Of a stretch of DNA of 64,000 nt, positions 11,359 through 63,195 are shown piece by piece (within the stretch, counting starts at the first letter, position 1; each line of letters opens with the position of its first letter). A model generated the notes under the pieces. That model had not been told where the DNA came from. It made no database searches and saw nothing but the letters and a program-made list of their open reading frames with translations. A program made the position numbers and the translations under genes. The DNA is from Octopus vulgaris. Taxonomy: Eukaryota. Where the stretch lies: positions 4,216,001 to 4,280,000 of the forward strand of contig OX597833.1 of NCBI GenBank assembly GCA_951406725.2, read 5' to 3'.

Positions 11359-11694
11359 ATGTTCCAGTTGTGAAATCTCAAGCAGCGACATTCTCCATCT
11401 CTTCTTCTGCCAAAATTGGTGATTCTGCTCAGTTCTTGTGCAATGCCACCACCACAGTACCTCAGTGCTATGCTCATTTCATGCATAATGACAAGAAGAT
11501 TGCTACAGCCATAGTTCCTGGTTTTGCAGTTCAAAGTAGTCCCAATACTTCAGTCAATGGTTCAGGCAACCAGTATTACTATAAGTATACAATCAGTTCT
11601 TTGACTTGCTCTGACCGAGGGAATTACAGGTGTTATGTGGCGAATAATAATGCTGCTGCATTGAAGAGTAACAGTGAGACTCTTGATGTTCTGG
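11359..11694 (+). CDS. Ig-receptor copy 1 exon 2, N-terminal V-like immunoglobulin domain (Ig1)
   Basis: TTTCAG| acceptor, |GTAAG donor, 336 nt, phase 1-1; B-strand Cys (GDSAQFLC) and F-strand D-x-G-x-Y-x-C (DRGNYRC). Confidence 0.88.
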
Positions 11695-11872
11695 GTAAGG
11701 ATTACCTTTATCTACTCTCCCTTTTACTCCCCCTTTCTCTCTCTCCATTCTATCCCCCGTCCTCCCCTCTCTCTCTCACATACAATGAAATTGTTGATGA
11801 TCCTTAACTTCCCCAACAATATTTATTGTATTTTAAATGTCCCTTTTTGTTCCCTTTTCTTTTTTCCTACAG

Positions 11873-12155
11873 GTCCAGCTGGAACTCCCAATCTGACGGC
11901 TCCTTCTGATAATCAAATTCTCAATGACAATGTCACCGTTTCTTGCGAGAGTAACGTTGGAAGTCCTGCACAGGGAATTACACCTTTGTGTTGACAATAC
12001 CTGCGCTAAACCAAACCCACCAGTTAAACAGGTCGATCAGTGCATTTTCACACAAACTGCAAGCCTAACATTTCAAGTCACCAAGACAACCAAGACGGCT
12101 ACATGTAAAGTGGGGTCAAGTTCTTTCATATTAATGCAAACCTGGGAAGTTGACT
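11873..12155 (+). pseudogene. Ig-receptor copy 1 exon 3, Ig2 (C2-like), with a +1 G frameshift at ~11973-11975
   Basis: CCTACAG| acceptor, |GTAAGT donor; VTVSCESNVGSP...TATC. CAGGGAA here vs CAGGAA in copies 2 and 3 gives 283 nt and an early TGA; may be a sequencing error. Confidence 0.8.
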
Positions 12156-13657
12156 GTAAGTTGTCTGTTTTTCTTGTCTGTTGCGCTGATTATTTCTTCA
12201 GAAATCACAGAAAACACAGTGAGTTGGTTGGATTCTGTGTAAAGAATGGATGGGAGGCAATGTGCCTTCCTCCAGAGATTGGCGTTTGGAGATTGATTGG
12301 AACCAGTGTTCACTCAATGCTGAAGATTCTTGGATTAGGTGTGAAGGTGTGAAATGATGTTGCCAATAAATTCTTGGAAGATTCTCAGAAAGCAAGTCAT
12401 TACATCTGGGTTGAGAGAGGAGATGAGTGATGCAGCAAGAATGAGCATGGGAGACAGGATAGAAACATCTAGCCCAGAATCTGAACATCATGTAGTTTGT
12501 TGGGTTGCCCTGGGTATCTCTGGTTTCGCAGTGGAAGAAACTCAAACACCTATAGACCTCATCAGGGGACAGCACATAAGTGCTTACCCTAAATGTTAAT
12601 CTTTTACTGGTTTCAGTCACTGGATTGTGCCCATGCTGGGGCTTTGTCCCCAACATTTGTTTCCACAATCATTCCAAGTGCAGGATGTATTTTGTCAACT
12701 CCTCCTGAACGACTGCTAAGTCAAGCCTTTGATGCTTGACCAGTTTATTTTCTTCACTGCTAATACTAGACAGGGGCCGGAGATATCAATGTGCATGCAC
12801 ACAATTATATAATTAAGGATGCGAAACTGAGTTATACCATTTGGTTGATAACTGATGAAGAATTAGGGACTTTCTGTGTCTGTCTTCCGTCTGTTTGTGC
12901 ACTTCATATACGTTATACATTTTCACTTGTTGTTTGTGTATTTACAATACGTTTCTTTCATTTATTAAATAACGGAACACAATGCACCCAGGTTCTTATT
13001 AACAATAGATTATACATACATACATTCATACTTACATATAATTATTCAATGTTTTCTTCATTTGATCAGACAGCAGAGTGTAATGCAAGAGAAATTTAGT
13101 TGCTATTTCTAGCAGTGCTATTGACCCCACACATCTTTCATTCATTGTTAATGTAGGGATTGGTGAAAATGGCAGAGAAATTATTTGTCTCTCATCACTG
13201 GGCATCAAGCCCTAGAAAATCTGTCACCCAAGGAGTGTTAAACATATAGATATATATACATATATACACCTTATTTTAGGTGCAGGCATGTGGGTAACAA
13301 GTTCTCTTCCAAACCATGTGGTTTTAGGTTCAACCTCACTGCACAGCACATTGTGTGCCTTCTGCAATGGCCTTTGACTGTGGGAAGTTAAGAAGGGATG
13401 AAGGGACAAGGAGCACTATAAGAAGGTATTCATGCATTGAGATGAAAATAAGGGGGAATGTGTCTGTGTATAGACGTTTTCTGAAGGGGTTATTTGGGCT
13501 GTGTGTGTGTGCATGTGTGTGTGTGTGAGTGAGTGAGAGAGAGAGAGAGAGAGAGAGAAAGAAAGGGAGTGAGAGAAAAGTGCCACATTTGACAACAAAG
13601 TGTTGGCACATAAAATGGTTTCATTAAATTCTCTTTTGATCATCCGTTTTCTTTCAG

Positions 13658-59507: not shown

Positions 59508-61049
59508 CCCTGCATCCTACATAATTAGGTGACTCAACCGTCTCTCAATAAATAAATGTATATTCGTTGCAAATCAATTATTTTCCCACTGACTTTTGGC
59601 CACACCTTTCTGTGCACATTCTGTTAAAATAAATCAGATCTGTGCAGACAAAAGGAAGCGGCGGCTATTATCGTGTCCCAGCAAAATGTCTTCTGTCCCA
59701 AATTACACGACAGGTGCCCAATTTATGTGTGATTAGGGGTTAGAAACGTGATCTTACCTCGAATGAGAAGTCTAACATCATGTCAGAGCTGGGAAAAGGA
59801 AAAACAACCATAGAAATATCAAAAATAGTGGCAAAAGATCACTGAACTGTGAAGGAATTTGTGCAGTCTCCTATTTCTGTTTGGTCGTGGGCAGATAATG
59901 TTAAGTTGAGAGCTGCTTCAAATCATACTTTGTCACATGAGAAAAGTGAAGATGTGCGGAACTCAGGTCTGACAAGTAGAGAAGTCTTCAAATGCTGTGG
60001 CAGGGAAGATGTATCAAAAACTACCAGGTGTCGCTTCTTGAAGCAGGTAACCAGGAATGTTAAACCTGTTGCCAAGCTCCTTCTGAAGGCTGTTCATAAG
60101 CAGAAGAGACAGGAATGGACAGAAGAATATATGAAGATAGATTTAGCAACAGTTCTGTTCACTGACAAATTCTGTGCTACCCTTGACGAACCAGATGGCT
60201 GGAGTAAAGGTTGCGTATCAATCAGAGGGAACCATCCTCATAGCTTGAGACGACAACAGGGGAGATGTGGGGTCATGTTTTGGGTTGGCATTGTTTGTGG
60301 TGTGATGGTCAGACCATGGAAAGTCCCAGATGGTATTAAGATGACATTGAAAACGTATGTTACCATCTTAAGGACAATTTCCAACCGTGGTTCCAAATAC
60401 AAGAACTTTTCTTCAAGAAAAAGCTGGTCTTTATGCAATATAATGCCTCATCTTATGCAGCCCAAAATTCTAAGGAATACCTGCAGCTTTTAGGGTTTTC
60501 TTAAGGTCGTTTGACTTAAACCCAATTGAGAACCTGTAGAGTGTCCTGAAGAGGCACATTTACCAAGATGGACGGCAGTTTTCAAGTAAAGTTGCCCTCT
60601 GGGATGCTATTGTAGATGCTGCTCAGATCATGACACAAGAAGATATCATCACCTTGACAAATTCAATGGATCAGCGCGTAAGGAAGGTTATTGCATGTGG
60701 AGGGCCATACACGAAACACTAGGAGCTGTATCATAACGCTGTGACTATTTTAATGCCAATGTATTATTATGTTTACCATTAAGTCCTTTAATATTGAATT
60801 AATTAAATGACTTTTCTGACACAATTATCATTTTTATTATACTTGCCTAGTAATTTGTGACGGTGAAAATCTTGCCCAATCACAAAAACGGCTGCCGTTT
60901 GTTGGTGTCTGCACAGATCTGATTTATTCTAACAGAACGTGCACAGAGAGGTGTTGCCAAGGGTCAATGGAAAAACAACAAGTTTTAGAATGAATATGGA
61001 TTCATTTATTAGGAGAAGGTTCATTTGTCTAATAATGTTGGACACAGTG
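59508..61049 (+). mobile_element. Tc1-like transposon paralog (intron 1, copy 3)
   Basis: Collinear with 8070-9611; ORF 59849-60493. Confidence 0.85.
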
Positions 61050-62859
61050 TATATACATACATATATAAAAAAAAACATTCAAACACTGAGATTTGAAATC
61101 AGATGTCACCAGCAGTGACATAGGTGGATCGCAGGCGCAATAGCATTAAATAGCTATGAATTATTTATTTGCACGAAGTGTAATGATGCTTAACAAGCAT
61201 CTACCTGCTAGAAATAAGAGCTAAAGTCTTAAATTAATCCACCGTACAGCATCAAGATAACAGAGAAATATATATATATCTATATATACACGCACACATA
61301 TATATACAGAAACACATATATATATTACTTTTTTTTTACTTGCTGCAATCATTTGACTGTAGCCATGCTGGAGCACCACCTTTAGATGGACATGTTAACT
61401 CCAGGAATTATTGTTTGTAAGCCAAGTACTTATTCTATTGGTCTCTTTTGCCAAACCACTAAGTGGCGGGTCATAAACACACCAACATCGGTTGTCAAGC
61501 GATGGTGGGAGGATAAACACAGATATAAATAACAAACACATACATACTTATATATACAACAGGCTTCTTTCAGTTTCCGGCTATCATGTCCACTCACAAG
61601 GCTTTCGTTGGCCTGAGTCTCTAGCAAAAGACACTTGCCCAAGGTTCCACGTAGTGGGACTGAACCCGGAATCTTGTGGTTCGGAAGCAAGCGTTTTATC
61701 ACACAGCCGCTCCTGTGCTTATATATATATACACACATATATACACACACAAACACACACATATACACATATGTATATACACAGACACAGTCACACACAC
61801 ACATATATATATACACATACACTCACACACATACATAAATGTATATATCAATATATGCTCCTCCAGTACTCCGTCGGTTACGAAGACAAGGGTTCCAGTT
61901 GACCCAATCAACCGAACAGACTGCTCATGAAATTAACGTGCAAGTGGCAGAGTACACCACAGACTCGTGTACCCTTAACATATTCTCAGGGAGATTCAGC
62001 GTGACACGGATTGTGACAAGGTGACCCTTTGAAATACAGGTACAAGAGAAACAGGAAGAAAGAGTGAGAGTAAGCTGTGGTGATGATGTACAGCAGGGTT
62101 CACCACCTGCCCCTACCCGGAGCTTCGTGGAGCCTAAAATATTTACACTCAATAAACACTCATAACGCCCGGTCTGGGAATCGAAACCGCAAATCCACTG
62201 GCCTAACCACTGAGCCATTGCTCCTCCACATATAAGCATATATATATATATATATATATATATATACACACATGCACACGCTCATATATATATATATATA
62301 TATAGATAGATAGATAGATAGATAGATAGATAGAGAGAGAGAGAGAAATACAGAGAAAAAGGGAGTGAGAGGAAGATAGATGGTTACATGTACCCATACA
62401 TATTTGTATATAAGGGCACAGGGGTGGCTGTATGGAAAGAAGTTTACTTTCCAACCACATGGTTCTAAGTTCAGTCCCACTGCATGGCACTAATGGGCAA
62501 ATGTCCTCTCCTATAGCCTTGAGCTGACTGAAACCTTGTGAGGGGATTTGGTTGGCAGGAACTGAATGAAGCCCATTGTGTATGTGTGTGTGTGTGTGGC
62601 TTTGTGTCTGTGTTAGTTCACCATACCACTTGGCAACCGGTGTTGGTTTGTCTACATCTCCATAGCTTAGCAGATTGGCAAAAAGAGAGCGGTGAAATAA
62701 GTATGAGTCTTAAAAAATGCACTGGGATCAATTCATTGAACTAAAAGCTGTTCAAGTTGGTGCCCCAGCATGGCCACAGTCTAATGAATGCAAGAAGTAA
62801 AAAAAAAAAGTAGCCAGACATTCATGTTTATTAATCTTTCTGTCTTTCTATCATTTCAG

Positions 62860-63195
62860 GTGTTCCAGTTGTGAAATCTCAAACAGTGACATTCTCCATC
62901 TCTTCTTCTGCCAAAATTGGTGATTCTGCTCAGTTCTTCTGCAATGCCACCACCACAGTAATTCAGTACGATGCTAATTTCATGCATAATGACATCTGGA
63001 TTGCTGTAGCCATAGTTCCTGGTGTTTCAGGTCAAAGTGATCCCAATACTTCAGTCACTGGCTCAGCCACTGAGTCCTACTATAAGTATACAATCAGTTC
63101 TTTGTCTTGTTCTGACCGAGGGAATTACAGGTGTGAGGTGGTGAAAGAAGTTGGTTATGTATTGAAGAGTAACAGTGAGACACTTGATGTTCTGG
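62860..63195 (+). CDS. Ig-receptor copy 3 exon 2, Ig1
   Basis: 336 nt, TTTCAG| and |GTAAG; both canonical Cys and DRGNYRC retained; loops strongly divergent from copies 1 and 2. Confidence 0.88.

Follow-up and report, generated by a model that had tools for sequence, protein, structure and literature searches.

Diversifying selection on one face of the first immunoglobulin domain in a receptor gene cluster of Octopus vulgaris with probable exon exchange

Introduction

Why should the first immunoglobulin (Ig) domain of neighbouring and otherwise similar genes change faster than the DNA around it? The question is raised by a stretch of 64,000 nucleotides from Octopus vulgaris (assembly GCA_951406725.2, contig OX597833.1, positions 4,216,001 to 4,280,000; G000:C20:4216001-4280000 in our numbering), which is called the window throughout. 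It carries three copies of a gene with Ig-domain exons (Ig1 to Ig3), designated copies 1 to 3 or units U1 to U3. A first-pass annotation of the window had read these copies as receptors with a hypervariable Ig1, under diversifying selection on a binding face. In the present analysis, the window and its surrounding 424 kb (4136001-4560000, no N) were examined for further units. As judged from sequence, the observation is genuine and statistically robust, and there is more to it than was described at first. The copies turn out to be satellites that very probably exchange exons with a long-tailed receptor gene, M, situated beyond the window, a relationship that had been missed earlier.

Diversifying selection on Ig1

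Exon 2, which encodes the hypervariable Ig1, lies on the plus strand at 11359..11694 in copy 1, 29792..30127 in copy 2 and 62860..63195 in copy 3. In each copy it is 336 nt long, with AG/GT ends and an open frame. The three starts were confirmed, and the codon differences counted earlier proved exact on recount: 28 replacement and 3 silent-only codons between copies 1 and 3, and 14 and 0 between copies 1 and 2. Between copies 2 and 3, there are 26 and 3 such codons, respectively. The near-identity claimed for Ig2 of copies 2 and 3 also stood, with three replacements when a 284-bp insertion carried by copy 2 is left out of the count.

For the comparison across the whole cluster, U7 was left out as its Ig1 is identical to that of U5, leaving 9 distinct Ig1, 9 Ig2 and 7 Ig3 sequences. 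In tree-free counts, the proportion of replacement differences per site (pN) among the 9 distinct Ig1 copies is 0.111-0.117, and that of silent differences (pS) is 0.040-0.047. The pN/pS ratio is thus 2.4-2.9, with a bootstrap P(pN<=pS) of at most 0.0006; the same ratio is 1.1-1.4 in Ig2 and 0.66-0.78 in Ig3. Within Ig1, the codons assigned below to the binding face have a pN of 0.191 and a pS of 0.048, as against 0.050 and 0.041 in the remaining codons. The latter are near neutral, and the conserved Ig1 framework described earlier is not borne out.

Among the 8 copies other than M, flanking intron aligns cleanly over two stretches, which differ by 2.8% and 4.5%, and the silent-site divergence of Ig1 matches this level. 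Three longer or more distant flank stretches were left unused, as their means of 9-18% are inflated by unalignable parts. Since pS on the face is not raised and the introns stand at 2.8-4.5%, the excess lies in the replacements, and not in mutation rate or age. None of the five fourfold sites on the face varies, and third codon positions vary least (20, as against 32 and 29). An old paralog with high dS, considered as a conversion source of the Ig1 diversity, was rejected because the pS of Ig1 is at the intron and Ig2 levels; exons of such an older paralog were not found in the 424 kb examined.

The codon models were self-written rather than run in codeml, with branch lengths taken from M0 and then scaled. 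For Ig1, the M0 omega (the dN/dS ratio) is 2.37, and twice the log-likelihood difference (2dL) is 61.9 for M2a against M1a, 62.2 for M8 against M7 and 61.8 for M8 against M8a, with about 30% of the codons at an omega of about 9. The 2dL is 3.7 in Ig2, where omega is 0.98, and 0.8 in Ig3, as against 62 in Ig1; site models on the paralogs thus confine the selection to Ig1. The six intact distinct copies alone give an Ig1 2dL of 51. As the copies recombine, neutral data were simulated with recombination. In these simulations, 2dL was inflated up to 37.6, none of the 28 data sets reached 62, and the M0 omega never exceeded 1.14. On the points to which the first-pass annotation had tied its claim, it was found that dS is not raised, that core positions are fixed, and that dN exceeds both dS and intron divergence. 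Diversifying selection on one Ig1 binding face is, at the level of sequence comparison, supported.

The selected face and the fold of Ig1

The strands were placed with an AlphaFold2 model of M built on a 20-sequence alignment (mean pLDDT 73, Ig1 blocks 58-89). The A-G strand names are our own assignment from this predicted model, made without coordinates. Sites with a naive posterior above 0.9, 21 in number, were taken as selected: three in the BC loop, three in strand C, four in C', two in C'-D, two in F, four in FG, two in A and one in E. Eighteen of them fall within the 49 face codons (p=2e-5), and strands C, C' and F hold 9 in 23 positions, as against 1 in 22 in strands B, D and E (p=0.01). 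In strands C and F, invariant positions (38, 40, 91, 93) alternate with variable ones (37, 39, 92, 94), which fits the outward residues of one sheet. The earlier placing of the changes in loops like complementarity-determining regions was therefore half right, with 9 of the 21 sites in loops, another 9 in strands C, C' and F, and 3 elsewhere. In the predicted model, it is the C-C'-F-G sheet face plus loops that the selected sites mark, and not the loops alone. The codon comparisons thus demonstrate selection that diversifies the predicted C-C'-F-G face of Ig1. A GFCC'-type face is typical of adhesion receptors and of Ig receptors bound by pathogens. In U2, U5, U6 and U7, moreover, C' has acquired an N-glycan sequon, and position 73 an additional Cys.

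By Pfam, Ig1 of the three window copies scores above the cut-off as I-set and below it as V-set. The Ig1 model has a C' strand and no ordered C'' (block mean pLDDT 58), and Phe stands at the expected strand-C Trp. Cys27 and Cys91, the B-F pair, are kept in all copies, and position 92 is K, E or Y. Fold searches match the three-Ig ectodomains of MAG, Necl-4, CD22, nectins, DIPs and SIRP-alpha at 14-20% identity, with no specific relative. The ESM Atlas neighbours (MCAM, BCAM, nectin and a 'histocompatibility ligand' cluster) were set aside as generic Ig look-alikes, and a single-sequence fold of copy 3 Ig1, with a mean pLDDT of 47, was discarded. Homodimer prediction of M Ig1-Ig2 returned 'no answer' with a score of 0.00 in two runs, which is evidence neither way. 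Two extra cysteines, at residues 102 (Ig1 codon 83, EF loop) and 187 (Ig2) of P0155, the protein of M, are at least 90% conserved across its family and may form an Ig1-Ig2 disulfide.

The cluster and its long-tailed gene

Of 12 candidates scored in a genome search, 10 matched Ig1; each of these is open, and they lie together on C20 between 4.227 and 4.482 Mb. The cluster thus spans about 0.3 Mb and comprises 10 Ig1-bearing genes, including the three window copies. A full-length query over the genome added a single locus, a weak match to the transmembrane (TM) region on C4 (E 7.7e-4). The 424-kb region contains 12 units, namely M and U0 to U10. M (G000:C20:4451835-4504256) equals P0155 (465 aa) and is laid out as a signal peptide, three Ig domains, a stalk, a TM segment and an 80-residue tail. 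It is neighboured by nine Ig1-bearing satellites, whose exon sequences mark them as descendants of an old paralog lineage.

Six satellites have a truncated tail. In U5, U7 and U10, the frame is open from the signal peptide through the TM segment; U1, U2 and U6 (three of the nine satellites, including window copies 1 and 2) are damaged after Ig1. The tails of U5 and U7 stop four codons into exon 9, ahead of KPRSRKP and the C-terminal motifs, and exons 7 and 8 of U10 were not found in the 424-kb region. In U3, U4 and U9, the exon 4 donor is lost and the frame reads on to a stop (354, 317 and 343 aa); their products are predicted to be secreted, and the annotated O. sinensis protein P0156 has the same form. 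U0 and U8 are without exons 2 and 3. As exons 2-5 all end in phase 1, skipping a damaged exon would preserve the frame. Three head-to-head pairs of a minus-strand secreted-type and a plus-strand TM-type unit were seen (U0/U1, U4/U5 and U9/U10).

Some further observations concern the units themselves. The lesions of U1, U2, U6 and U8 all lie after Ig1, with exons 1 and 2 open in 10 of 10 copies, events too few for a test; an O. sinensis copy, P0007 (196 aa), likewise loses its frame within Ig2. Identity of 96-99.7% over long blocks is seen between U5 and U7 (4313168-4335000 and 4374721-4396651) and between U2 and U6 (4240700-4268500 and 4339514-4370000). These pairs could be very recent duplications or uncollapsed haplotypes. 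U2 and U6 also share a long interspersed nuclear element (LINE) that has replaced the 5' portion of exon 4. In U4, exon 3 is present a second time, with no normal acceptor (G000:C20:4302448-4302734), and in U6 the stalk exon is duplicated (G000:C20:4357101-4357215). The public gene models P0001 and P0002 merge three adjacent copies into 'CEACAM5-like' proteins of 723 and 931 residues, and the cluster is thus hidden in the annotation.

Probable exon-limited exchange between M and the satellites

The distance between M and its satellites depends on the exon compared. Between M and the satellites' A-type stalk, TM and tail exons 7-8, pS is 0.36 (dS 0.48, dN 0.39), and it is 0.49 over 18 signal-peptide codons. 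The silent difference between M and the satellites is 0.043 in Ig1, 0.022 in Ig2 and 0.065 in Ig3. Exons 2-4 match at 88-95%, with the match extending only 38-123 nt into the introns, as against 68-79% for exons 1, 5, 6, 8 and 9. Intron 3 is 95% alike over its first 38 nt; past a 400-nt stretch specific to the satellites, a remnant is 80% alike. Old divergence from stalk to tail, a silent difference of 2-7% in exons 2-4 and homology that ends within the introns together point to exon-limited gene conversion. We strongly infer that exons 2-4 have been repeatedly exchanged between M and the satellites, with conversion tracts ending where the introns lose homology. A single recent chimeric duplication would need both versions of intron 3 to have been replaced since, repeated conversion being simpler; tree-based approximately unbiased (AU) tests neither confirm nor reject this.

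The rare Ig1 states of M occur in patches shared with U4 (codon 37), U9 (49, 52), U3 (56, 60) and U1 (94, 99, 100), five others being private, and an incompatibility test on the copies gave p=0.007. At the protein level, satellite Ig3 is identical to M at 77-81 of 86-88 residues, and two O. bimaculoides Ig3 copies, which group together in a protein tree (support 98/97), at 73 and 76 of 88. The A-type TM and tail are identical to M at 18 of 36 and 14 of 36 residues, compared with 23 of 35 and 25 of 36 for Argonauta; lost constraint may add to the A-type protein distance. Separately, the O. bimaculoides model P0008 has two similar Ig3 domains and no Ig1-2, and may be a fusion of a paralog with M.

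The family of M

Full-length relatives of M are present in O. sinensis, in Argonauta, in gastropods and bivalves, and in a nemertean. By its sequence, it is the octopod member of a mollusc and nemertean three-Ig receptor family that mostly carries a tail with an ITIM (immunoreceptor tyrosine-based inhibitory motif). The family includes XP_011422692, XP_005112942, XP_046551284 and XP_064651548, and it shares with M the layout and the tail motifs EPPEKP, PDLV, KPRSRKP and a terminal P-x-V. In a 20-protein alignment, the tail positions at least 90% conserved are E386, E389, P405, D406, D440, P443-R446, P448, P463 and V465. With the ITIM scored as [ILVS]xYxx[ILV], in a set that includes some isoforms and fragments, the motif was found in 21 of 24 non-octopod sequences, often followed by a motif like the immunoreceptor tyrosine-based switch motif (ITSM). 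P0174, a cephalopod-like sequence (the taxon is a guess) that is 41% identical, retains the ITIM. The octopods differ in having lost the ITIM tyrosine, and the young satellite cluster was met only in Octopus.

Y-N-N, a Grb2-type motif, is retained both in the Octopus M tails and in the tail of the A type. The A-type TM segment has Lys in place of M's Gly at its outer edge, followed by 20 uncharged residues. No paper characterising this ITIM-tail family was found in open-licence PubMed Central and bioRxiv. According to the available part of PMC11841013, an ITIM receptor of oyster combines three Ig domains with an additional Fn3 domain. The polymorphic Biomphalaria sudanica candidate BSUD.17807 (504 aa), as given in the accessible part of PMC10875847, was set aside as an ortholog on the position of its TM segment, its sequence itself not being compared. 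The TM-like match at 436-468 leaves about 36 residues, as against 87-95 in the Aplysia and B. glabrata family members.

Comparison between species and in transcripts

When M of O. vulgaris is compared with that of O. sinensis, 10 of 111 residues differ in Ig1 and 5 of 354 elsewhere (p=0.0004). A secreted O. sinensis paralog shares I39 solely with O. sinensis M, a hint in the sequences of within-species exchange there.

For transcripts, 4 of 24 listed runs were compared at window positions 61500-64000; the kinds of run are guesses and the data are contigs. A joint skipping the 177-nt GT..AG intron 2 was observed in X1, X3 and X10, which belong to three studies, and not in X15. The joint shows spliced transcripts of the family, of a gene or tissue that the contigs do not specify. 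Seven pieces from the three runs guessed to be RNA were scored on listed differences only, 243 further differences falling outside the list. Two pieces (X1) match M at every listed site. One (X3, 3' part) matches U9 and is spliced to an exon 3 that differs by 2 letters from U3 and by 7 from U9. The other four (X1 twice, the X3 5' part and X10) differ from each assembled copy by at least two listed states, which suggests further alleles or mosaics; the runs may be from other Octopus species. Short Ig1 proteins of other individuals were also sought, and none turned up.

Copies 1 to 3 and other features of the window

The exons of copies 1 to 3 are all on the plus strand. Copy 1 has its signal-peptide exon 1 at 7535..7595. 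Its exon 3 (Ig2, 11873..12155) is frameshifted by an extra G (GGG at 11973-11975), which gives a stop after 172 aa and could be an assembly error. Exon 4 (Ig3, 13658..13924) is one codon shorter than in the other copies. It is followed by exon 5, the A-type S/T/P-rich stalk (15428..15541), exon 6, the A-type TM exon, in which 2 nt are deleted close to the 3' end (16839..16950), and an exon 9 homolog (19054..19260) of about 69% identity to the last coding exon of M. Exons 7 and 8 of copy 1 were not found. The exon 6 deletion and the missing exons 7-8 would put exon 9 in an M-tail-like frame, and the exon 6/9 junction would create S-K-Y-L-T-V, an ITIM-consensus motif. This junction would matter only where the frameshift in exon 3 is due to misassembly or that exon is skipped.

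In copy 2, exon 1 (signal peptide) lies at 25015..25075. Exon 3 (Ig2, 30315..30880) is disrupted by the 284-bp insertion at about 30332-30615, giving a stop after 160 aa. The LINE (reverse transcriptase) that replaces the 5' part of exon 4 occupies 33620..36061 on the minus strand, its left limit being approximate, and a 3' remnant of the exon persists at 36062..36210. The A-type stalk exon 5 (41762..41875) and TM exon 6 (43330..43443) are followed by exon 7 (43730..43750), which has 21 nt compared with 22 in U5, U6 and U7, and the tail frame is shifted. The A-type tail exon 8 is at 48670..48757, and an exon 9 homolog at 51315..51517. Copy 3 has exon 1 (signal peptide) at 57830..57890 and an intact exon 3 (Ig2) at 63373..63654; its exon 4 sits 2.2 kb past the window and, the splice donor being lost, runs on to a stop. 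With no stalk or TM exon whatsoever, copy 3 is predicted to yield a secreted three-Ig protein. The unchanged stalk and TM segment reported earlier thus hold for copies 1 and 2 only, and the description of three receptors had passed over the damage in two copies and the predicted secretion of the third.

On the minus strand at 511..571 lies the signal-peptide exon 1 of U0, head to head with copy 1; U0 is without the Ig1 and Ig2 exons, and its exon 4 lies left of the window. A 1.8-kb tandem duplication of 98% identity (1750-3520 and 3542-5323) stands between U0 and copy 1. Remnants of Tc1/mariner transposases, duplicated with the gene units, were seen at 8195-9055, 25800-26288, 26809-27490 and 59846-60493, the first two being backed by Pfam matches. 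A second LINE (RVT_1, zf-RVT) lies in a copy 2 intron (46220-48090, minus strand). GC-rich minisatellite arrays at 32537-33595 and 43755-44383 yield long spurious open frames.

Interpretation of the cluster

At roughly even odds (about 0.5), the best explanation is an arms race in a cluster of paired or decoy type, in which a foreign ligand would drive the change of the Ig1 face and the secreted and tail-less copies would be decoys and donors. A microbial, parasite or viral adhesin would bind the Ig1 face of M, and M would escape it by altering that face. Secreted or tail-less copies with related faces would absorb the ligand without relaying the signal of M. The satellites would also act as a store of donor sequence, and face variants arising in any copy could enter M via conversion.

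Several points weigh against this explanation. With three of the nine satellites damaged and Ig2 near neutral, some of them may be mere pseudogenes. None of the 4 octopod M-type tails has an ITIM or ITSM, and the A-type tail has no ITIM consensus either; octopod M is therefore no inhibitory partner of the classic kind. In the satellites, an immunoreceptor tyrosine-based activation motif (ITAM) is absent and only the Lys at the outer TM edge is present, and an activating partner would be hypothetical. The U9-type Ig1 of two sister species has 5 differences, none in BC, C, C', C'-D or F, with one at the end of the FG segment and the rest off-face; such an unchanged face fits kept specificity as well as an arms race. 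As the contigs cannot be phased to the stalk or tail, the satellites are expressed proteins by prediction only. The protein trees (Ig3, TM-tail) are mostly unresolved, the AU tests reject none of the alternatives (p-AU 0.30, 0.48 and 0.11), and the duplication behind the A lineage is not dated by them with respect to Argonauta.

An explanation without selection, by relaxed pseudogene drift, local hypermutation, a recombination artefact or uncollapsed haplotypes, is largely refuted and very improbable. Recombination did inflate the test in simulations, and U5/U7 and U2/U6 may partly be haplotype duplicates; however, the tree-free excess of pN holds, pS on the face is not raised, the fourfold sites there are constant, third positions vary least, the intact copies alone suffice, and none of the 28 simulations reaches 62 or an omega of 2.35. 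A system of self or kin identity, with M homophilic through the C-C' side of Ig1, its alleles kept diverse by balancing selection and the neighbours mainly conversion donors, is possible though unlikely. In Hydractinia, the selected sites of Alr2 are likewise on the C/C' side of domain 1, and conversion or unequal crossing over reshuffles its exons with pseudogenes lying next to it, according to the available part of PMC8282982. Run X1 contains two Ig1 types at similar depth, one of them equal to M at all listed sites. The four transcript pieces without an assembled match and the nectins and nectin-like proteins among the top fold matches by TM-score are also in keeping with it. However, the unmatched contigs are possibly paralogs or from other species, secreted copies with intact frames are unnecessary as donors, the Fn3-like spacer of Alr is missing, and octopuses are solitary animals without fusion.

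A role in reproduction, with sperm-egg, sperm-oviduct or seminal proteins that evolve through sexual conflict or for the recognition of species, is doubtful. It would account for the fast change of M Ig1 between sister species and for the secreted plus membrane forms, and the octopod loss of the ITIM takes away the main immune hint; but many divergent faces coexisting with copy turnover in one genome are generally better suited to an immune cluster. Still more doubtful is a code of cell identity that would serve wiring or the sorting of tissues, as in Dpr/DIP or the nectins, with paralogs diverging toward new partners. The three-Ig fold does resemble the DIP, nectin and Necl ectodomains, and the U9 face is kept across two species. 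Such codes are, however, usually stable, whereas the copies of this cluster become broken, undergo conversion and lose their tails, and M evolves quickly.

A different arrangement of the same parts can also be considered, rather unlikely as it is: the satellites would be a germline cassette library that writes Ig1 faces into M, giving each animal a near-individual face for self/non-self discrimination. The cluster would then be a cephalopod histocompatibility-like locus derived from a checkpoint receptor that lost its ITIM. Conversion in it may be somatic as well.

If the arms-race explanation is true, a vertebrate-type paired or decoy solution with exon-limited conversion arose independently in a mollusc, from a widespread and apparently unstudied ITIM-tail receptor family. 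The roughly 10 natural face variants, the 21 selected residues and the easily expressed secreted forms would provide an entry to pathogen or self recognition in octopus, and for octopus aquaculture, the cluster is a candidate resistance locus. No description of a diversified cephalopod Ig-receptor cluster was found in open-licence PubMed Central and bioRxiv, with subscription journals and genome-paper supplements outside this scope. Two recent reviews do not name one in the parts available: in PMC11999971, neither 'octopus' nor 'cephalopod' occurs, and PMC13428168 mentions cephalopods only for hematopoiesis.

Comparison with known systems

Siglecs typically have an invariant Arg on strand F after the canonical Cys position, without a B-F disulfide. 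In octopus, that position (92) is K, E or Y, and Cys27 and Cys91 are kept; thus, the octopus protein is not a Siglec. The CEACAMs comprise a long-tailed receptor (CEACAM1) with young paralogs that are altered in the tail (CEACAM3) or secreted (PSG and decoy CEACAMs), with selection on GFCC'. The octopus cluster is similar in its one conserved long-tailed receptor, its young altered-tail or secreted paralogs and the selection on the GFCC' face. Yet the CEACAM N domain generally lacks the B-F cysteine pair, which octopus Ig1 keeps, and a separate origin is indicated. The 'CEACAM5-like' label that NCBI gives to the window models rests on generic Ig similarity. Rearranging antigen receptors differ as well: in these, a V segment is completed by being joined to a separate J segment, and in octopus the domain is contained in full, as far as strand G, in exon 2, which has a splice donor of its own in each of the 10 copies.

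Among molluscs, the hyperdiverse recognition candidates of Biomphalaria, namely FREP/VIgL, PTC1 (GRC) and PTC2, are comparable; PTC1 and PTC2 are clustered single-pass membrane genes linked to parasite resistance, in the available parts of PMC10875847 and PMC7494358. Unlike these, the octopus genes have no fibrinogen or lectin domain, and they are closely related paralogs, all of a single Ig gene, with conversion limited to exons. The Pfam families that pass the cut-off on M are of Ig type only, and the gene models end in a stalk and TM segment or at a stop. Hydractinia Alr1/Alr2, to judge from the accessible parts of PMC9546547 and PMC8282982, also form a cluster of genes and pseudogenes with one domain per exon, in which domain 1 is the most variable, its C/C' side is selected and exchange occurs with neighbouring pseudogenes. 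The octopus differs in its Ig1 cysteines, which are kept, in its non-colonial life and in the absence of the Fn3-like spacer, and homophily would here be a hypothesis only. On M, no Pfam match to Fn3 was found, and residues 324-356 are unstructured (pLDDT <50).

The closest functional likeness is to the paired receptors of vertebrates. In these, linked genes have ectodomain exons kept alike by repeated gene conversion and divergent TM segments and tails, as described in the available parts of PMC13358205 and PMC5701461. Siglec-11/16, Siglec-5/14 and PILR alpha/beta have these features, and non-functional partner alleles are frequent among such pairs. Close linkage, near-identical ectodomains, divergent TM segments and tails and homogenised exons 2-4 are all found in the octopus cluster. 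It differs in belonging to an invertebrate, in having many satellites instead of one, in the coexistence of conversion with strong diversification of the binding face, and in an octopod M without an ITIM, and ITAM-adaptor coupling would here be hypothetical. Taken together, the cluster falls outside the Siglecs, the CEACAMs, Alr proper, the FREPs and the ITIM-bearing pairs, and by this comparison it would work like the paired and decoy receptors of vertebrates, with a parallel in Alr2.

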